From: a virus | Length of the DNA stretch: 62,279 nt | Direction: 5' to 3' (one strand) | IMG/VR virus record: IMGVR_UViG_3300048774_000008 | Coordinates: 1-62,279 of that record | Part shown: positions 1 through 62,279 of the stretch, in pieces | How the letters are laid out: each line of letters opens with the position of its first letter | Numbering within the stretch: the first letter of the stretch is position 1 | Translations under genes and position numbers: made by a program | The notes under the pieces: generated by a model | The model's database searches: none | What the model was told of the DNA's origin: nothing | Seen by the model: only the letters and a program-made list of their open reading frames with translations

Positions 1-473
1 ACCTGCGCATTGTCGGACACCTGCGCATTGTCGGACACCTGCGCATTGTCGGACACCTGCGCATTGCCGAACACCTGCGCATTGTCGGACACCTGCGCAT
101 TGTCGGACACCTGCGCATCGCCGGACACCTGCGCATTGCCGGACACCTGCGCATTGCCGAACACCCACGCATCGCCGGACACCTGCGCATTGCCGGACAC
201 CTGCGCATTGCCGGACACCCACACATCGCCGGACACCTGCGCATTGCCGAACACCTGCGCATTGCCGAACACCTGCGCATTGCCGGACACCTGCGCATTG
301 CCGAACACCCACGCATCGCCGGACACCTGCAAATTTTTCTCGGCTTCGATGTAGCCGCCGAGTTTGCCCGGTAGGACACACAGGCCGATTGCGACCAACG
401 CCCGAATGCGGTACAGCTTCCGTCCGTTCCATTCTTTCGTATCGTTTTCTAACAGTTCATATTTTGCGTTCAT
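1..473 (-). CDS. Hexapeptide-repeat protein, N-terminal part (ORF leaves the window at position 1)
   Basis: ATG at 473-471 preceded by AAGGAG. Protein starts MNAKYELLENDTKEWNGRKLYRIRALVAIG..GGYIEAEKNLQVSGDAW, then 18-nt (6-aa) tandem units VSGNAQ/VFGNAQ/VSDNAQ/VSGDAW. No stop before the window edge. Absent from the ORF track because it is truncated. Confidence 0.7.
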   Translation of the reverse strand, partial: MNAKYELLENDTKEWNGRKLYRIRALVAIGLCVLPGKLGGYIEAEKNLQVSGDAWVFGNAQVSGNAQVFGNAQVFGNAQVSGDVWVSGNAQVSGNAQVSGDAWVFGNAQVSGNAQVSGDAQVSDNAQVSDNAQVFGNAQVSDNAQVSDNAQVSDNAQ

Positions 474-4081: not shown

Positions 4082-4900
4082 TTATGCCGCTTTTTTCAAG
4101 GCCGATAAAATGTCTTGATCTCTTTCGACGTTCAACGCCTTGCGAATTTTCGCAAGCGTATTTACATTCCTTTTCCCTATATCAAGCGCATCTCTTAATT
4201 CGTTTTTTGTCGCATCGTGCAATCCGTTGATGCGGTCGATGTAGGTATTCAACCGCGCAATTTCTGCGTTTTTGTCGTCCAGTTCGTACCGGTCGATGCG
4301 CTTATTTAGTACGGCAATTTCAGATAGTGAATCTTCGTATAATTGTACAAAATCAGCATCGCCAAATGCCGCTACTTCCTCTTCGGTAATTTCGCGCTCA
4401 GGTGATGCTTTCGGATTAGAATAAAGTGACTTCGGCGGCGGAGTTGTTTTGCCTTTGGCTTTATCGGGCTTTGCAATGGCCTTGGCTACAGATACTTTTC
4501 CAGCAGTAACTTGATCAAATACATCATCCGGCAATGCCGCTAATTTTTGCGCGCGCGCCGAAGTTTTTTTATCTATTCCGATATTTGCAAGTGTTGTAGC
4601 GACCACTGGTACTGATTTGGTACCAGTGGTTTTGTATTGCTCCCCACCCTTTGCTTTTGGCATTGCCGCAAGCAATTCGCCTAATTTTCGCTCTGCTTGC
4701 AACTGCAACGCCTTGGCGCGCTGGATGATATCGTGTTGCCCTTTGTATTCAACATTGGCGAATGCAACCGCTGCCGCCATCATTGCCATTACCGATTTAA
4801 TCTCTTCCGGCGATTCTGCCAGCGCAAGCAGTTGCTCTGCTTTATCAAGCGTTGAAGGGAGATATTGCGAATCTGCGGATACTTTTGAAATGGCATTCAT
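4082..4900 (-). CDS. Hypothetical protein, possible DNA-binding/coiled-coil protein
   Basis: 272-aa ORF with ATGA-type overlap to its neighbours. The central GGEQYKTTGT..TLANIGIDKKTSARAQKLAALP segment is HTH-like. Confidence 0.4.
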   Translation of the reverse strand: MNAISKVSADSQYLPSTLDKAEQLLALAESPEEIKSVMAMMAAAVAFANVEYKGQHDIIQRAKALQLQAERKLGELLAAMPKAKGGEQYKTTGTKSVPVVATTLANIGIDKKTSARAQKLAALPDDVFDQVTAGKVSVAKAIAKPDKAKGKTTPPPKSLYSNPKASPEREITEEEVAAFGDADFVQLYEDSLSEIAVLNKRIDRYELDDKNAEIARLNTYIDRINGLHDATKNELRDALDIGKRNVNTLAKIRKALNVERDQDILSALKKAA

Positions 4901-9710: not shown

Positions 9711-9907
9711 TTAGCACCCCTCTTCGGCTTGTCAGCCTTCAGTGCATTATTTGAAATAGCCTGAATAGCCAATTGCGCATGCCTCGGAATAGCGATTCCC
9801 TTTTTTGCGTTAGCACGCCATTTCGCTATACATGACGGAGATCGCTCAAGTGCGACGGCGATTTGCGCGTCATCCCCGTATTTAGCTTCCAACTGTTTGA
9901 ATTTCAT
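9707..9907 (-). CDS. Cro/YdaS-like transcriptional regulator (66 aa)
   Basis: First gene of the leftward operon. MKFKQLEAKYGDDAQIAVALERSPSCIAKWRAN..IPRHAQLAIQAIS resembles the Cro/YdaS HTH. The ATG at 9907 has GGAGGTG upstream. The longer N-terminus in the ORF track is AT-rich promoter sequence. Confidence 0.55.
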   Translation of the reverse strand: MKFKQLEAKYGDDAQIAVALERSPSCIAKWRANAKKGIAIPRHAQLAIQAISNNALKADKPKRGAK

Positions 9908-10389: not shown

Positions 10390-12102
10390 ATGAAAAAAAT
10401 AACTTCAATTTCACCGGAGCAGGTCGGTAAATTTGCAGAATGGTCTAAAAAGTGGATTGAAATTGGACTATCCACAGAGCCTGCTGATTTTGATCTTGCG
10501 ACTGACGCTGCACTGCGTGCCTACAAACTCTGCAATCTGAACAAACCGATGATTATCCTGCGCATGGGATCGCCTTATGGCACAACGGTTGGCGGAGCTT
10601 ACGCATGGTTAATGTTGAAAGAACTTGAGAACCAAGTGGGGAACCAAGTGTGGAACCAAATGGGAAGCCAAGTGGGAAGCCAAGTGGAGAACCAAGTGGG
10701 GAACCAAGTGTGGAACCAAATGGGAAGCCAAGTGGGAAGCCAAGTGGGAAGCCAAGTGGAGAGCCAAGTGTGGAACCAAGTGTGGAGCCAAGTGTGGAAC
10801 CAAATGGGAAGCCAAGTGTGGAACCAAGTGGGAAGCCAAGTGTGGAACCAAGTGGGAAGCCAAGTGGAGAACCAAGTGGGGAACCAAGTGGGAAGCCAAG
10901 TGGGAAGCCAAGTGCGGAACCAAGTGCGGAACCAAGTGTGGAACCAAGTGGGGAGCCAAGTGCGGAGCCAAGTGTGGAACCAAGTGTGGAGCCAAGTGGA
11001 GAGCCAAGTGCGGAGCCAAGTGGGAAGCCAAGTGGGGATCCAAGTGGAGAACCAAGTGGGAAGCCAAGTGCGGAGCCAAGTGTGGAACCAAGTGGGAAGC
11101 CAAGTGGGGAACCAAGTGTGGAACCAAGTGTGGAGCCAAGTGGAGAGCCAAGTGCGGAGCCAAGTGGAGAGCCAAGTGTGGAGCCAAATGGGAAGCCAAG
11201 TGTGGAGCCAAGTGGGAAGCCAAGTGGGAAGCCAAGTGGAGAACCAAGTGGGAAGCCAAGTGTGGAACCAAGTGTGGAACCAAGTGGGGAGCCAAGTGCG
11301 GAACCAAGTGTGGAACCAAGTGTGGAGCCAAGTGGAGAGCCAAGTGCGGAGCCAAGTGGAGAGCCAAGTGGAGAGCCAGGCAAAGGCAGGTTTGAGTAAT
11401 TATCGCGGAGGCTCTATTTGGAATGCCGGATGGTGTGCTTATGTTTCATTTTTTCGCGACCAAATGCAATGGGAAGATTCATTACTTGAAAATTTCACGA
11501 TAGATGAAGACCTCGCAAAATCATGCGGGTGGGTATGGTGGCATGAAAATGTGCTGGCGATTAGTGACCGTCCAGAAATTTTAAATCGCGACGACGAAGG
11601 AAGATTGCACTGTGAAAATGGTCCGAGCATAGCCTATCGCGACGGCTGGTCTTTATATCATTTTCACGGTGTAACGGTTCCGCAATTAGTTATCGAATCA
11701 CCCGATCAGATAACCATTCAGATGATTGAATCAGAATCTAACGCAGAGGTCCGGCGCGTTATGATGGAACGGTATGGCTATGATCGGTACATTTTGGATT
11801 GCGATTCGGAGCTTGTGGATTCATGCCGACTAGACCACCCGATCATTGGGTTGCGTGATGCAAAATTGCGCGTTAAAAAAGTTTCGGACGATGAGCCGAT
11901 TGTTTATATCGACCTGCTCAATTCAACTCCTGAACCTGATGGCAGCGTAAAACGGTATTTGATGCGCGTTGATCCAAATGCTTACGGCGGAGATGCATCG
12001 ATGGTGTGCCAAGCAGCAGCGGCAAGCACCTGGCGCGAGTCGATTGACGGAGAACTTGTTTACAAAGATTGGCGTGATTATGCGCCCGTGTTTGAATCGT
12101 AA
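10390..12102 (+). CDS. Repeat protein: 79-aa N-domain, 62 tandem xxQV tetrapeptides, conserved C-terminal domain (DUF6745-like)
   Basis: 570-aa ORF. The C-terminal part ([13 protein letters not shown]...[22 protein letters not shown]......[20 protein letters not shown]) looks like a conserved uncharacterised domain. Confidence 0.7.
10627..11370 (+). repeat. 62 tandem 12-nt units ([G/W/E/R][N/S]Q[V/M] coding)
   Basis: Counted from the translated protein and the coordinates (744 nt / 12). Two forward and two reverse frames stay open, which produces four artefactual overlapping ORFs in the track. Confidence 0.95.
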
Positions 12103-48541: not shown

Positions 48542-48663
48542 TTGATTCCCTTTTCAAAATCCCTGAAAGGAGGGCGAGAAAACGAGCAGGGAAACTCGCT
48601 TATCAGCCGCGCTGGCCTATTCTCGCCGCAAGTGTTACAACAACGTGAAGATTAACGTGAAGA

Positions 48664-56765: not shown

Positions 56766-57356
56766 ATGTTCCCCGATCAAGAATCGGCGCGGCTCTATCT
56801 CGAAAAACGCCTTTGGCCTAACGGTTGCCGCTGTCCAGTATGCGGCATTGGCGACCGCGTGACGGCGCGCAAAAATGGTTTCTACCGCTGCAACCAATGT
56901 AGAGAGGATTTCACCGTTCGCACTGGAACGATTTTTGAACGTTCGCACGTTCCTCTACATAAATGGCTTTACGCGATGTACCTGGTCACCACGGCACGTA
57001 AGGGCATTTCATCATTACAACTGAGCAAGGAAATAGACGTTACGCAAAAATCTGCATGGTTCATGCTACAGCGTATTCGTGAAGCCTGTGGCACTGATCC
57101 AACGATTTTAAGTGGAGTTGTCGAAGTCGATGAAACCTACATCGGCGGCAAAGAATCCAGCAAGCACGAATCGAAAAAGCTAAAGGCTGGCCGTGGCGCT
57201 GTCGGCAAGACCGCCGTCATGGGCATGCGTGAGCGCGGCGGTAGAGTCAATGCCGTTGATCTGATTGCAGATAAGATACTGGCATTTAAACCAAAACCAA
57301 AGAGCGCCCCGGCCAAAAAACGTGCGAAAGCGCGTAAGAAACTGGCTAGGGAATGA
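56766..57356 (+). pseudogene. IS1595-family transposase remnant (N-terminal zinc ribbon + HTH, DDE domain truncated)
   Basis: CPVCG....Y.C..C...FTVRTGTIFE.S.VPL.KW..A....T.....ISS.QL......T.KSAWFM..RIR......L.G.VEVDETYIGG is the IS1595 N-region. The ORF ends about 45 aa into the catalytic domain with an unrelated Lys/Ala-rich tail. Confidence 0.65.
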
Positions 57357-57844: not shown

Positions 57845-57882
57845 GAATTCATCAGCAGTACAAACCCAACCGGAGAATGAAA

Positions 57883-58098
57883 ATGAGCACAAATCAAACA
57901 GCAGCATTTAATGCAGGCGTAGAATTTGCAAAATACCTGAACGATAGTCCTAATGCACGTCAAAACTGGAGTCAACTCTCCCGCGCCGACGGGATCCCAG
58001 AGGGAGATTACGCCGAACTAACTCGCGAATTTGGAGAATGCAATTCCGACATGGAGAATCAATTCCGTGCTGGATTCAATAAAACATTATGCAAATAA
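57883..58098 (+). CDS. Small protein, paralog A (71 aa)
   Basis: MSTNQTAAFNAGVEFAKYLNDSPNARQNW..; GGAGA 7 nt upstream of the ATG at 57883. Confidence 0.6.
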   Translation: MSTNQTAAFNAGVEFAKYLNDSPNARQNWSQLSRADGIPEGDYAELTREFGECNSDMENQFRAGFNKTLCK

Positions 58099-58154
58099 AT
58101 AGTTGATCCACCCGACGCCGAATTCACAATTTTTTAAATCAACCGGAGAATAAA

Positions 58155-58409: not shown

Positions 58410-58455
58410 ACCACCTGGCATGGATACAATTTTTTAAATCAACCGGAGAATGAAA

Positions 58456-58677
58456 ATGAACACGAACACAAATCAAACAGCAGCATTTAATGCAGGCGTA
58501 GAATTTGCAAAATTCCTGAACGATAACCCTAATGAACGTCAAAACTGGGGTCAACTCTCCCGCGAGGACGGAATCCCAGAGGGGGATTACGCCGAACTAA
58601 CTCGCGAATTTGGAGAATGCAATTCCGACATGGAGAATCAATTCCGTGCTGGATTCAATAAAACATTATGCAAATAA
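58456..58677 (+). CDS. Small protein, paralog B (73 aa)
   Basis: About 90 percent identical to paralog A. The last ~110 nt are identical. Confidence 0.6.
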   Translation: MNTNTNQTAAFNAGVEFAKFLNDNPNERQNWGQLSREDGIPEGDYAELTREFGECNSDMENQFRAGFNKTLCK

Positions 58678-58789
58678 ATAGGGAATTATATATTTAATTC
58701 CCTGTGCAAAATAAATCAAAAAACACTTGCAATTGCGCCCATCGGCACAACGCCAACCGCGCCTCGGGATCAGGGGCTGGAGAAATAAA

Positions 58790-59408: not shown

Positions 59409-59563
59409 CTGCCAAATCAGGTAAGCAGCGCGCCCAAGAATTGCGTAATCGCCGCATCGACGCTGGCCTGGTCAGGCTCGATATTTACGCGCCACGCAGT
59501 CTGCACGCTGCCATCCGCCAATATGCTAAATCTTTAATTTCCCTACAGAAAGTCGAAAAATGA
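59405..59563 (+). CDS. Small basic protein (52 aa), possible RHH-type regulator
   Basis: MTAKSGKQRAQELRNRRIDAGLVRLDIYAPRSLHAAIRQYAKSL, with a strand-helix-helix-like pattern. ATGA-coupled on both sides. Confidence 0.4.
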   Translation: MTAKSGKQRAQELRNRRIDAGLVRLDIYAPRSLHAAIRQYAKSLISLQKVEK

Positions 59564-59703
59564 ACCTGCCATCATCGATTAAACTGTCTCAAACCCTCCG
59601 GCGCCAGATGGGCGATTTTAACTATGTCCGGTATTGCCGCAATCTCGGCGTTGATTTTGAGACCGTCTACACGCTCATGTTCGGCAGGATACCGCGCATT
59701 TAA
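59560..59703 (+). CDS. Small protein (47 aa)
   Basis: MNLPSSIKLSQTLRRQMGDFNYVRYCRNLGVDFETVYTLMFGRIPRI. Its last 20 nt belong to the repeated leader-like element of the CRISPR region. Below the ORF-track cutoff. Confidence 0.35.
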   Translation: MNLPSSIKLSQTLRRQMGDFNYVRYCRNLGVDFETVYTLMFGRIPRI

Positions 59704-59716
59704 AAGCATGCTTTTT

Positions 59717-59849
59717 CGTGGGGAACACAGGCTCAAACTCAACCGATGGGCGGCCCATCCGGTTCATCCCCACGCTCGTGGGGAACACGCCTGGTGCTAC
59801 GCTCTGCACCGACGAACACGCGGTTCATCCCCACGCTCGTGGGGAACAC
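59717..59849 (-). CRISPR. Mini-CRISPR array B: 2 full type I-E-like repeats, 2 spacers, truncated terminal repeat
   Basis: Minus sense: GTGTTCCCCACGAGCGTGGGGATGAACCG at 59849-59821 and 59788-59760. Spacers are 59820-59789 (32 nt) and 59759-59729 (31 nt). The terminal copy keeps only GTGTTCCCCACG (59728-59717). Confidence 0.75.
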
Positions 59850-59887
59850 CTGGTGCAGGATACCGCGCATTTAAAAGCATGCTTTTT

Positions 59888-59959
59888 CGTGGGGAACACA
59901 GGCTCAAACTCAACCGATGGGCGGCCCATCCGGTTCATCCCCACGCTCGTGGGGAACAC
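59888..59959 (-). CRISPR. Mini-CRISPR array A: 1 full type I-E-like repeat, 1 spacer, truncated terminal repeat
   Basis: Repeat 59959-59931. Spacer 59930-59900 is identical to the distal spacer of array B. Truncated repeat 59899-59888. Confidence 0.75.
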
Positions 59960-60169
59960 CTGGTGCAGGATACCGCGCATTTAAAAGCATGCTTTTATAA
60001 ATTCGATGGCTAATCCGCTAACAGTGATTCGTGTTGCTCACCTTCACGCGGCGGCATACTCTATGGTGCCACATCCATGTGGCATTGCGGTTTATCAATC
60101 CTACGATGGGCTATCCGCAGATTTTTCGAGTACGGCTGTCCAGCCATCGAAATCTGTGGTGCATAATGC

Positions 60170-60192
60170 AAAAAGCCCCGTTCTCGCGGGGC
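60170..60192 (-). terminator. Rho-independent terminator
   Basis: Minus strand: GCCCCG-CGAGAA-CGGGGC followed by TTTTTG. Confidence 0.75.
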
Positions 60193-60494
60193 ATCCTTTG
60201 TCTACTGTTTGCCCATCGTGGGCGCTCTGGCGGTATTGGTTCCGAGTACAGCGTCTCGGGGAGTTTGTCTTGCAACATAGCAGCTCGGCCGGCTTTGTAA
60301 TCCGGCTTCATACGCCTGTTAGTTATCCTGCTCTGTATCATGGTCGGCTACGGTCCGGTCGCTCCTGCGCCAATTTTGCCGGTACTACCATATTTTCGAG
60401 CGAACGAAGCTATCAAGCTTCGGGGCTTCAGGTAAGCCGCTGCCCTGCTTTCGCTCAAATTACCTACAAGAACATCACTACAGATCAAGCAGGT
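60170..60494 (-). ncRNA. Candidate ~325-nt structured RNA (late-promoter leader transcript, function unknown)
   Basis: Bounded by a near-consensus promoter and an intrinsic terminator. No credible minus-strand ORF. Many local stems, e.g. GAGCGAA..TTCGCTC enclosing CGAAGC-TTGATA-GCTTCG, GCCGG-9 nt-CCGGC, CCGAG-8 nt-CTCGG, GCCC-ACGAT-GGGC. Confidence 0.45.
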
Positions 60495-60500
60495 TATGCC

Positions 60501-60529
60501 ATGCTACATGGACAATTTAGGCGTGTCAA
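60501..60529 (-). promoter_or_regulatory. Strong sigma70-type promoter (candidate late promoter, PR-prime analogue)
   Basis: Minus strand: TTGACA (60529-60524), 17 nt, TAGCAT (60506-60501), about 120 nt downstream of the Q-like stop. Confidence 0.6.
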
Positions 60530-60540
60530 TACATTTGTCG

Positions 60541-60655
60541 TTGACATCCTCCCCGCCCTAAAGGACGGGGATTCCTACAGCTAGCAGCGCATGTCCGCGC
60601 TATCCATCCTCCCCCTGAACGGGGAGGATTTTCGCGCAAAGCCCTGTTAAAAATC
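60541..60655 (+). repeat. 115-bp perfect direct repeat, copy 1 (three hairpins, the last a plus-strand intrinsic terminator)
   Basis: Identical to 61242-61356. Hairpins are TCCCCG..CGGGGA, AGCGC..GCGCT, and ATCCTCCCC-CTGAAC-GGGGAGGAT followed by TTTT. Confidence 0.95.
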
Positions 60656-61228
60656 CATATCATTTGATAGTTTTTTCATGGAAACATCTGCGCACCGTGC
60701 CGCCATCGCGTTTAGCACCTCAATCATGTCTAAAACGTAATCGCGCACTTCTTTTCTGCACAGTATCGGCTTCGTGCCGGTGCCGCGGCAGGCGGGGCAT
60801 GGTTCATCAGAGAGTATTGGCGTTCCAGCTAATGCTAGGTGCGTTACGCCGGTCGCTAGGTTCATCTTTCCGGTGCAAATAGGACATTTATCGTTTAGCC
60901 AGTGCTTTAGAGAGAGATCGGCGATTTTTCCGGTATCCGTTTCTTTAGGCCATTTTCGACCCGCAGACTTGAATAATACGATTCCCGTCCATTTTACAAG
61001 CAACGGATTGTAACTGGTCGCGTCGTTTGCGTATTTCACGCGAAATAACAAATTACCGATCCCCGCGCCTTCCGCAAATGTTGGGATGATGGGCTTATCG
61101 TTAATCCAGCCGGATGCGCCGCTGCCAATGGCTACTGCTGCCAATGGCTCGGTATTGTGGTGAAATTCATCATCGCGCAATTCTGTCGCCTGCACCGATC
61201 TTGCATACCGATCAACTATTCCCATCAC
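60647..61228 (-). CDS. Lambda-Q-like antiterminator candidate (zinc-finger protein)
   Basis: CPICTGK...22 aa...CPACRGTG parallels the CRDCHGTG...CGRCKGVG pair of lambda Q. Similar size (193 aa). Position between the nin-type genes and the late promoter/late genes. Confidence 0.4.
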   Translation of the reverse strand: MMGIVDRYARSVQATELRDDEFHHNTEPLAAVAIGSGASGWINDKPIIPTFAEGAGIGNLLFRVKYANDATSYNPLLVKWTGIVLFKSAGRKWPKETDTGKIADLSLKHWLNDKCPICTGKMNLATGVTHLALAGTPILSDEPCPACRGTGTKPILCRKEVRDYVLDMIEVLNAMAARCADVSMKKLSNDMDF

Positions 61229-61241
61229 CCCCCCCTTTTTT

Positions 61242-61356
61242 TTGACATCCTCCCCGCCCTAAAGGACGGGGATTCCTACAGCTAGCAGCGCATGTCCGCG
61301 CTATCCATCCTCCCCCTGAACGGGGAGGATTTTCGCGCAAAGCCCTGTTAAAAATC
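61242..61356 (+). repeat. 115-bp perfect direct repeat, copy 2
   Basis: Identical to 60541-60655. Preceded by a C8T8 homopolymer junction (61229-61244). Confidence 0.95.
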
Positions 61357-61374
61357 GATCATGCTTGCGCTTGC

Positions 61375-61794
61375 TCACGGCATCCCCACCACATAGCCAG
61401 CCACGCATTCCACATCGTTTATGCTCGACAGGTTCGGCAAATTGACCGCCGGTGCCATGTGCATGAATTTCGGCTCGTGCTTTGATGAAACCACCTTCGC
61501 CGCCGCATACGCCTGCTTATAGCGCAATTTCGCATTATTCTCATGCGGTGCATCACATGCTGTCAACTCTTCGGATGCATCCAGCAATTCCTTCAGCGCG
61601 GCACGTTCCATTGCTGTGGTGCAATCACAATTTCGAGTGTCAGTCATCGGCGGGCGGTTTTCGTCGATTACTTGCATTGCAATGGCGGCGATAGCTGCTT
61701 TAATTGCTTGCGCAGCATCTTCCATTTTCGGCAGTTCGCCAGTGCCGTTGAGGATGCTTTCGAGTACGGCTATGTGTTTTGTTGCGTCGTTCAT
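61375..61794 (-). CDS. Hypothetical protein (139 aa)
   Basis: ATG 61794 with GAGGA 8 nt upstream, one nt after the stop of the repeat gene. Confidence 0.55.
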   Translation of the reverse strand: MNDATKHIAVLESILNGTGELPKMEDAAQAIKAAIAAIAMQVIDENRPPMTDTRNCDCTTAMERAALKELLDASEELTACDAPHENNAKLRYKQAYAAAKVVSSKHEPKFMHMAPAVNLPNLSSINDVECVAGYVVGMP

Positions 61795-61795
61795 T

Positions 61796-62279
61796 TCAAT
61801 CCTCAATCAGTTCTGGCATATCAAACCAGTGCGCAATCAGGTTGCAGATTCCAAGGTACGATTTTCCGATCTTGGAATCTGCGCCGTGCTTCTCATTGAC
61901 GGCAGCGCGGAATTTAATGAGGTCGCCCTGAAAGCATCCTCGCTTCAGTTCTAGTCCGTCTTTTGTCCGATAAACAGTCAGCGTGCCGTTTTTGCTGCCG
62001 ACTCCTGAATAGATCTGAATGTCGGCACGTTTTTGCACCTGCGCATTGCCGGACACCCACACATCGCCGGACACCCACACATCGCCGGACACCTGCGCAT
62101 TGCCGAACACCTGCGCATTGCCGAACACCTGCGCATTGCCGGACACCTGCGCATTGTCGGACACCTGCGCATTGCCGAACACCCACACATCGCCGGACAC
62201 CTGCGCATTGCCGAACACCTGCGCATTGCCGAACACCTGCGCATTGCCGGACACCTGCGCATTGTCGGACACCTGCGCA
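61796..62279 (-). CDS. Hexapeptide-repeat protein, C-terminal part (ORF enters from the window end)
   Basis: The frame is open to the last base of the window. Repeats VSGNAQ/VFGNAQ/VSGDVW, then a globular tail ..RADIQIYSGVGSKNGTLTVYRTKDGLELKRGCFQGDLIKFRAAVNEKHG.. The GTG start in the ORF track is probably internal. Confidence 0.7.
   Translation of the reverse strand, partial: AQVSDNAQVSGNAQVFGNAQVFGNAQVSGDVWVFGNAQVSDNAQVSGNAQVFGNAQVFGNAQVSGDVWVSGDVWVSGNAQVQKRADIQIYSGVGSKNGTLTVYRTKDGLELKRGCFQGDLIKFRAAVNEKHGADSKIGKSYLGICNLIAHWFDMPELIED

Follow-up and report, generated by a model that had tools for sequence, protein, structure and literature searches.

The viral DNA of IMG/VR record IMGVR_UViG_3300048774_000008, analysed here over its whole length of 62,279 nucleotides (nt; the window), probably carries on its minus strand a Q-type processive-antitermination cassette of a lambdoid-style Burkholderiales phage; from the sequence we infer its antitermination activity, its loading site and the late timing of CRISPR RNA (crRNA) synthesis. 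In the proposed mechanism, the last gene of the early operon would encode a distant protein of the Qλ family, and a sigma-70 promoter at 60529–60501 would start a transcript whose first ~125 nt are predicted to fold as a 5′ hairpin followed by a two-helix domain. Without the Q-like protein, transcription would stop at an intrinsic terminator (60192–60170), giving an RNA of ~325 nt. Once accumulated, the protein would load on RNA polymerase at the promoter-proximal region and render it terminator-resistant. The polymerase would then pass the terminator and two CRISPR mini-arrays, yielding precursor crRNA for the type I-E Cascade of the host, and would continue antisense through a 2-kilobase (kb) block of plus-strand accessory genes and across a second terminator (57744–57712) into the terminase and structural genes. 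Antitermination is favoured over plain activation because terminators both follow the leader and precede the late genes, with no consensus promoter between. The Q-like open reading frame (ORF), the promoter, both terminators, the arrays and the late genes all lie on the minus strand where an earlier note on this DNA had placed them.

The promoter, TTGACA-17-TAGCAT, scores 10/12 in a simple sigma-70 scan, and transcription would start near 60494. Together with the end of the tR′-like terminator (GCCCCG-CGAGAA-CGGGGC followed by T5, located by a terminator scan), this start delimits the transcript of ~325 nt. Such motifs alone prove little, because they occur near the level of shuffled sequence: promoter-like sites are not enriched in the region (5 found, 7.0 ± 2.6 in shuffles), and terminator-like sites are modestly enriched (12 found, 6.6 ± 2.3 in shuffles). 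Their significance comes from conservation: about 30 other loci have an equivalent promoter, leader and terminator downstream of a homologous gene.

The conserved core of the leader was found by BLAST of the window leader against the contigs of relatives, and a core pattern then recovered more loci. Nine sequences were aligned with two helices and converted into a covariance model, which was run over 47 sources comprising 453 kb and including 36 loci found independently through the protein. The model gave 38 matches in 32 distinct sequences, all on the strand of the Q-like gene and 55–2750 nt downstream of it, with no further match at E ≤ 1 across the 453 kb; at least one further locus, L051, has a divergent copy that can be recognized by eye. 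A covariation analysis of related regions, of the kind that the earlier note had proposed, uncovered compensatory changes in the two-helix motif. Paired cells amount to 89%, as against 34–54% when the partners are slid by 1–3 columns, double-sided changes occur in 9 of 11 pairs, and the observed values were reached by none of 500 shuffles. The alignment was fitted by the model and leans towards it, and these figures are strong but not independent evidence.

Anchored on the motif, the upstream sequence aligns almost gap-free and comprises a −35 element (TTGCAC, TTGTAA or TTGACA), a conserved spacer, a −10 element and a start at (A)CTGC, with a promoter-to-motif spacing that is fixed in 29 loci. 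The 5′ hairpin P0 is present in 29 of 29 sequences (mean fold z-score −2.1) and starts at +2 to +5; its arms vary (TGCATGC/GCATGCA, TGCGCGC/GCGCGCA, GCGGAGC/GTGCCGC or ACCTGC/GTAGGT) and always close just before GCATAA. P0 is followed by the AU-rich junction GCATAAYTTG, by helix P1 enclosing helix P2 (loop YCCUU), and then by AAAAU. Many relatives (L034, L043, L047, L006, L053, L057, L036 and L051) possess an optional second hairpin with the loop CAGAUAG between the motif and the terminator, which was not seen in the window.

The intrinsic terminator that follows the leader in relatives often ends in GGCTTTTTGCATT; the tail of the window terminator, GGGGCTTTTTGCATT, is common to relatives, and homologous terminators stand after the motif in related loci. 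In 22 of 30 loci, a simple scan placed a terminator no more than ~120 nt past the motif. For six of the remaining eight (L013, L035, L012, L036, L054 and L040), a terminator that the T-run rule had rejected was recognized by eye, and in L034 and L031 the scan skipped a terminator that likewise did not satisfy the rule and gave its first match beyond it. Every locus has a terminator after the leader. In the short forms, the end of the motif and the end of the terminator are only 18–60 nt apart, corresponding to an estimated transcript of roughly 165–190 nt, and the region ranges from ~165 to 325 nt among relatives. As judged from these alignments, promoter, leader and terminator constitute one conserved cassette with a two-helix RNA motif that is absent from Rfam.

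The conserved structured leader of the window occupies 60495–60372 (minus strand), on the evidence of the covariance-model match, covariation and fold z-score. It comprises P0 (60494–60462), the AU-rich junction, and P1 enclosing P2 (60459–60395), and the model match extends over 60470–60382 (79 bits, E = 6e-16). Folding of the whole stretch 60495–60165 (331 nt) gave an unconvincing z-score of −1.6, and splitting it confined the structure to the first 124 nt of the transcript (P0 plus P1/P2), with a z-score of −2.57. The 188 nt after the leader show no excess structure (z-score −0.42), and BLAST of the leader against relatives matched nothing beyond leader position ~154, which marks 60371–60193 (minus strand) as a lineage-specific spacer. 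The 325-nt RNA with many stems of the earlier note is a conserved leader of ~125 nt plus a non-conserved, unstructured spacer, and not one entity; its description stands for the first ~125 nt and fails for the remaining 188 nt.

The leader matches no RNA family in Rfam, tmRNA, RNase P, 6S and group I included; the earlier note had likewise found no match to these four by eye. Rfam 15 at gathering scores, run over the whole window, gave no match on the leader, and a scan of 59500–61500 at E ≤ 10 gave nothing within 60193–60495. The sole match touching 60170–60495 was UPD-PK2 (plus strand, 16 nt, E = 2.2) at 60155–60170, which meets the last base. ARAGORN found no tRNA or tmRNA. BLAST of the region against GenBank phages matched nothing except the right end of a 118-nt repeat described below. 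Exact-pattern scans of IMG/VR gave 0 matches for the terminator, the spacer, the promoter, the leader-like unit of the arrays and the left hairpin of the miniature element, and scans of JGI metagenomes gave 0 matches for the promoter and the array leader-like unit.

Only three ORFs lie in the transcribed region, two of 46 and 76 amino acids (aa) on the minus strand and a third, the one that was scanned, of 192 aa on the opposite, plus strand (60006–60584). The idea that the region encodes this plus-strand protein and that the RNA features are incidental is almost certainly wrong. The ORF is long and open; however, it has no Pfam or PHROG match, and its C-terminal end would come from an inserted miniature element that is absent from the 99%-identical contig L010, on which two grounds it was rejected. 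Moreover, relatives differ in the length of the region, and what they conserve is an RNA structure on the other strand.

The Q-like gene (61228–60647, minus strand) is an ORF of 193 aa when read from GTG 61228. Its true start is likely ATG 61225 (192 aa), because a 99%-identical protein (P0001) has 192 aa. The protein contains paired cysteine motifs, C115-x2-C118-x-G and C144-x2-C147-x-G-x-G, the four cysteines of which are invariant across 16 close homologues; across 83 diverse relatives, C118, C144 and C147 are invariant and C115 is nearly so (at least 90%). The 16 homologues, returned by a database search, share 33–99% identity, are mostly unnamed or annotated as ‘hypothetical’, and derive from Burkholderiaceae, Herbaspirillum and Herminiimonas. 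When 1.84 billion cluster representatives were searched with a profile, 1166 of them were assigned to the Q-like family at E ≤ 0.001.

The relationship to Qλ emerges from profile and structure comparisons. Alignment of the 83-sequence family profile with lambda Q by hhalign (probability 90.8%, E = 1.2e-6, 111 columns) covers Qλ residues 30–157, from the N-terminal segment through the body helices to the zinc ribbon; the lambda Q query sequence was checked against Protein Data Bank (PDB) entry 7ubm_Q. Lambda Q itself falls in PHROG 127 (7.6e-83), a family matched by 18 of the 83 relatives (best 9.6e-16). An AlphaFold model built with the 83 sequences (predicted local distance difference test (pLDDT) 88.8, predicted template modelling score (pTM) 0.82) comprises helices at residues 57–66, 70–90 and 99–111, a beta ribbon at 115–150 and a long C-terminal helix at 159–191. 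A Foldseek search of this model against the PDB placed Qλ chains at ranks 1, 2, 3 and 5, the top two being 7ubn_Q (probability 0.99) and 7ubm_Q (probability 0.95). Qλ is laid out as body, zinc-ribbon arm and body (PMC9388147), and the order of helices, zinc ribbon and long C-terminal helix in the model appears to match this plan. The protein appears to share with the Qλ family a helical body with an inserted four-cysteine CxxCxGxG zinc ribbon, and differs in falling below the PF03589 threshold. On the strength of hhalign, Foldseek and PHROG 127, together with the apparently common body and zinc-ribbon layout, the earlier likening to lambda Q can be upheld as remote homology: the 193-aa protein is, by these comparisons, a remote member of the Qλ lineage beyond the curated family boundary, with a putative antitermination activity.

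The genomic position of the homologues is consistent with this assignment. On the contigs that encode them, the genes upstream are NinB, NinG, HNH, DnaB-like, helicase/primase or Cro genes, and those downstream are terminase, portal and structural genes. In Burkholderiales phages and prophages they stand where the early region ends, which is the place of Q in lambdoid phages. The late genes of the relatives have no homologue within the window; the Q cassette alone is therefore common to them, as expected of a mosaic module. The only close relative available for comparison is contig L010, which is 99% identical across the Q-like gene.

Several observations weigh against a Q-type switch. The Q-like protein has no match to the Pfam model of Qλ (PF03589) at E ≤ 1, none of the 83 relatives matches it at E ≤ 0.01, and the models of Q21 (PF06530) and Q82 (PF06323) are matched neither by the protein nor by the 83 relatives. 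As a positive control, lambda Q matched PF03589 at 6e-58 in the same Pfam library. Thus, of the comparison with lambda Q, Q82 and Q21 that the earlier note had called for, Qλ is reached by profile, whereas the Pfam models of Qλ, Q21 and Q82 are not. Searches of Pfam and NCBIfam with the protein gave generic zinc-finger matches only, as did a profile search of PDB sequences (UvrA and DnaJ). The Foldseek matches to Qλ are weak (E = 0.016–0.026, TM-score ~0.4), and those of the model include no Q21 structure. No sigma-dependent pause element could be assigned. The pause elements of lambda, 21 and 82 lie at +1 to +15; the best −10-like element of the present family, GCATAAT, is far from there, at about +30 to +36, and its copy in the window (GGTAAT) is degenerate. 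Conserved RNA structure is, to our knowledge, no part of the known Q mechanism. Finally, weak promoters may lie within the arrays. GCATAAT was also considered as the true −10 element and was rejected: it has no conserved −35 partner, whereas the upstream promoter is conserved. Candidate binding sites, in DNA or in RNA, are the spacer of the promoter, which is conserved, the +1 ACTGC, and the loops of P0, whose conservation holds within sublineages. GCATAAT at about +30 is a further candidate signal, and neither it nor the promoter spacer nor the +1 ACTGC occupies the position of the corresponding signals in lambda, 21 or 82.

That no pause element is assignable would also suit a leader RNA that is itself a put-like cis antitermination device, with the 193-aa protein as an ordinary DNA-binding regulator or promoter activator. 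We regard this as very improbable. The precedent is the putRNA of HK022 (PMC9378689), likewise a structured nascent RNA just downstream of a phage promoter and before terminators, and the leader described here is structured and covarying in the same position. However, put needs no phage protein, whereas the present RNA always accompanies a Qλ-like protein, and its 5′ hairpin and branched domain are unlike the two adjacent hairpins of put. The protein also appears to retain the zinc-ribbon arm, which in Qλ contacts RNA polymerase and DNA, and a conserved terminator right after the RNA would be purposeless if the RNA alone suppressed termination.

A Q-type switch remains the preferred interpretation, and its layout follows that of lambda Q/PR′/6S RNA/tR′ (PMC9388147). 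Regulator, promoter, short terminated transcript and late genes stand in the same order, and in both systems terminators before the terminase genes need read-through; the likeness that had been drawn from the window is supported for the protein, for its position and for the conserved cassette. In contrast to lambda, the leader here is a conserved structured RNA whose distance from the promoter is fixed, a −10-like pause element close to the promoter is not recognizable, and the hosts are Burkholderiales rather than enterobacteria.

In Stx phages, the slot behind the PR′ terminator carries cargo that is expressed by Q-dependent read-through, and the terminated PR′ transcript is the regulatory small RNA (sRNA) StxS (PMC7547250). 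The present family resembles them in that relatives carry tRNA genes in this slot and the terminated leader may itself be a functional RNA; it differs in the cargo of the window, which consists of mini-arrays and opposite-strand small genes, and in the lack of any sequence relation to StxS. It is possible, if somewhat doubtful, that the promoter–leader–terminator unit is mainly an sRNA gene, constitutive in lysogens and trans-acting like StxS, and such a role may coexist with a Q switch. The structure is conserved, with a protective 5′ hairpin from +2 to +5, an AU-rich stretch immediately precedes the terminator hairpin and U-tail in short-form relatives (for example L009, L019, L041 and L028), and StxS provides a precedent. 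However, neither a target nor a seed region was identified, 188 nt of non-conserved sequence come between motif and terminator in the window, and the association with the Q-like gene and the fixed promoter spacing point to a role in cis.

The arrangement downstream of the leader fits antitermination by the Q-like protein. The minus strand from 60387 to 57477 has no promoter site of 9/12 or better in the simple sigma-70 scan, which detects near-consensus promoters only. The second hairpin and T-run (57744–57712, minus strand) was read from the sequence, being unlisted by the terminator scan owing to a loop of more than 8 nt; it ends 12 nt upstream of the start codon of the first late ORF (57699), leaving no room for a promoter between it and this 109-aa ORF. 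With no consensus promoter between, polymerase from 60529 can reach the terminase genes only by crossing two terminators and 2.8 kb, and Q-modified polymerase reads through terminators in this manner (PMC9388147). The start of the late operon (57699–54778, minus strand) comprises the 109-aa ORF, the terminase small subunit (56618–56055; PHROG 51, 1.7e-20) and the terminase large subunit (56058–54778; PHROG 2, 9.8e-28), and minus-strand ORFs continue to about 24 kb.

The slot between the two terminators contains two type I-E-like CRISPR mini-arrays (59996–59690, minus strand), the repeats of which were read from the sequence. They begin 175 nt after the terminator and are followed by ~2 kb of small plus-strand ORFs; lying directly behind the terminator in the crRNA sense, they do have the functional orientation claimed earlier. 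Three exact 29-nt repeats, GTGTTCCCCACGAGCGTGGGGATGAACCG, are located at 59959, 59849 and 59788, with spacers of 31–32 nt (spacer A twice, spacer B once) and truncated terminal repeats, and a 37-nt leader-like unit occurs three times. The repeat pattern (GTGTTCCCC...GGGGAT(A/G)AACCG), the ~32-nt spacers and the leader on the 5′ side are those of a type I-E array. We take the repeat to resemble the Escherichia coli I-E repeat; no Rfam CRISPR-DR model matched the mini-arrays at threshold. The only candidate target of the spacers is a 22/25-base match of spacer B at 9749–9773 of L024, a prophage with a Q-like homologue in a Burkholderiaceae metagenome-assembled genome, which is too weak for a protospacer. 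Between the terminator and the first array, GGATTGATAAACCG at 60055–60110 (minus strand) resembles the 3′ end of a type I-E repeat and may be a decayed repeat; it went undetected at up to 12 mismatches over the full repeat.

Like known virus-borne mini-arrays and solitary repeat units (PMC6858448, PMC11656645, PMC10651486), those of the window have one spacer or two, repeats of the host type and a terminal repeat that is truncated, and they lack cas genes. Such arrays are presumed to employ host Cas proteins against related phages or against the immunity of the host (PMC6858448, PMC11656645, PMC10651486). The window arrays differ in that they appear to lie inside a defined antitermination-controlled transcription unit; the mini-array review contains no description of arrays inside such a unit (‘late gene’ occurs 0 times).

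Among the relatives, five carry tRNA genes directly behind the terminator and on the strand of the Q-like gene (one to seven genes each), at 4635–4708 in L034, 4973–5047 in L038, 2786–2859 in L043, 6157–6923 in L057 and 9691–10802 in L006. These slots contain either one tRNA-Gly or arrays of 5–7 tRNAs. A ParE and helix-turn-helix (HTH) gene pair fills the slot in L004, and other relatives run straight into late genes. The earlier description of the slot downstream of Q as a moron hot spot is thereby borne out, with tRNA genes of relatives standing where the mini-arrays sit. By analogy, the mini-arrays would, like the tRNAs, be RNA genes for which transcription by read-through, followed by processing, is enough.

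That crRNA would be made late and under Q control is plausible and agrees with the finding of no consensus promoter at the arrays. In lysogens, crRNA could come from leaky termination or from a weak promoter inside the unit. It is unlikely that the arrays are transcribed from a weak promoter of their own, in the 37-nt leader-like unit or the 175 nt upstream, with their position an accident of insertion. This would agree with a slot that is a general landing site for unrelated cargo (the ParE/HTH pair in L004, tRNAs elsewhere) and with a simple scan limited to near-consensus sigma-70 promoters. However, no minus-strand site of at least 9/12 lies between 60387 and 57477, the best candidate in the leader-like unit, read by eye, scores ~6/12, and the arrays are co-oriented with the late transcript, as are the tRNA genes of the relatives. 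Only tentatively do we propose the more far-reaching combination, in which the P0–P1–P2 leader would be a new phage RNA class, acting as part of the loading signal or in the manner of StxS, and crRNA would be released at a time set by Q.

Two 106-nt miniature elements flank the Q-like gene on the minus strand. Copy A is located at 61242–61347, in a 118-nt repeat that extends to 61359, and copy B at 60541–60646, in a 118-nt repeat at 60658–60541; the two 118-nt copies are 99% identical. A 143-aa ORF (61806–61375, minus strand) lies upstream of repeat copy A. The earlier account of 60170–61228 was right about the elements that it listed and missed both miniature elements, one of which lies inside that interval. 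Copy B starts directly after the stop codon of the Q-like gene (TTTTTAA|) and ends 11 nt before the −35 element. It is absent from the 99%-identical L010, which reads TTTTTAA|CGACAAATG (empty site ...GATTTTTAA|CGACAAATGTATTGACA...), and the window thus has a 106-nt insertion at 60646–60541 between the stop codon and the promoter. The homology of the window to L010 begins exactly at the right end of copy A.

Over its last ~60 nt, the 118-nt repeat is 88–95% identical to the 3′ ends of tnpB genes, read on their coding strand, in Bacillus phage Dartukuta, Saccharomonospora phage PIS 136 and Ralstonia phages. Sub-threshold Rfam matches on the repeats (HgcC with E = 0.001 on copy B and 0.024 on copy A; sot0042 with E = 0.4 on each), from families that presumably overlap tnpB 3′ ends, led to the IS605 reading. 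One hairpin lies 19 nt from the left end of the element and another 9 nt from the right end, which terminates in TCAA, and the fold is strongly structured (z-score −4.35). With the end geometry of IS608 as the reference (PMC3201880), the subterminal hairpins, the TCAA, the fixed target and the empty site identify the 106-nt repeats as miniature (palindrome-associated) elements of the IS200/IS605 type. The 12 nt in front of the two copies, AT[G/C]GATTTTTAA, are almost identical, which makes a duplication by recombination as likely as two separate insertions.

The elements share hairpin ends, TCAA, the TTTTTAA target and the match to tnpB 3′ ends with IS200/IS605 elements and TnpB omega RNAs. 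They differ from the autonomous elements and the TnpB–omega RNA system in that the window contains no tnpA or tnpB, as searched by tblastn and phmmer with two phage TnpB proteins. A guide-RNA function is doubtful, because the elements retain no more than the 3′ part of the guide-RNA scaffold. Immediately 3′ of copy B, in the position of a guide, stands CGACAAATGTATTGAC, which covers the −35 element and is preceded by TTTAA in L010. In the mRNA of the Q-like gene, copy B would form the 3′ end.

Further features were noted elsewhere in the window. An IS1595-like fragment, a 196-aa ORF with a CxxC...CxxC N terminus (56766–57356, plus strand; PHROG 25593, 4.9e-27; resemblance judged by eye), interrupts the late operon on the opposite strand, after its first ORF and before the gene for the terminase small subunit. 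A 230-nt duplication with 94% identity (57873–58102 and 58452–58681, plus strand) gives rise to paralogous ORFs of 73 and 75 aa, of which only the 75-aa copy was scanned, with no family match; both lie in the opposite-strand block, which late transcription would cross antisense. The Rfam int-alpA motif is present at 48561–48627 (minus strand; 46.3 bits, E = 2e-6, above the gathering score) among the structural genes. The same 18-nt tandem repeat, belonging to a YdcK-type beta-solenoid protein (PHROG 7964), occurs at both ends of the window (1–460 and 61928–62279), which suggests a circular genome or an assembly cut inside the repeat gene. Tandem repeats with a 12-nt period (10509–11500, 59 overlapping copies reported) lie inside a 570-aa plus-strand ORF (10390–12102).

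The relationship of the 193-aa protein to Qλ would extend the reach of the Qλ family well beyond enterobacterial phages. A new conserved structured RNA tied to Q-like genes makes it testable whether some Q proteins need RNA signals in addition to those in DNA; if it is an RNA loading signal, it would set this branch of Q proteins apart from lambda, 21 and 82, whose qut sites consist of DNA only. Used together in Burkholderiales prophages, the protein profile and the RNA model would show where the early region gives way to the late one and where the cargo slot lies. The mini-arrays offer a concrete, testable case of the timing of phage mini-arrays, a point that is unaddressed in the mini-array literature consulted for comparison: if they are released as proposed, the Cascade of the host would be fired against competitors only after commitment to lytic growth.

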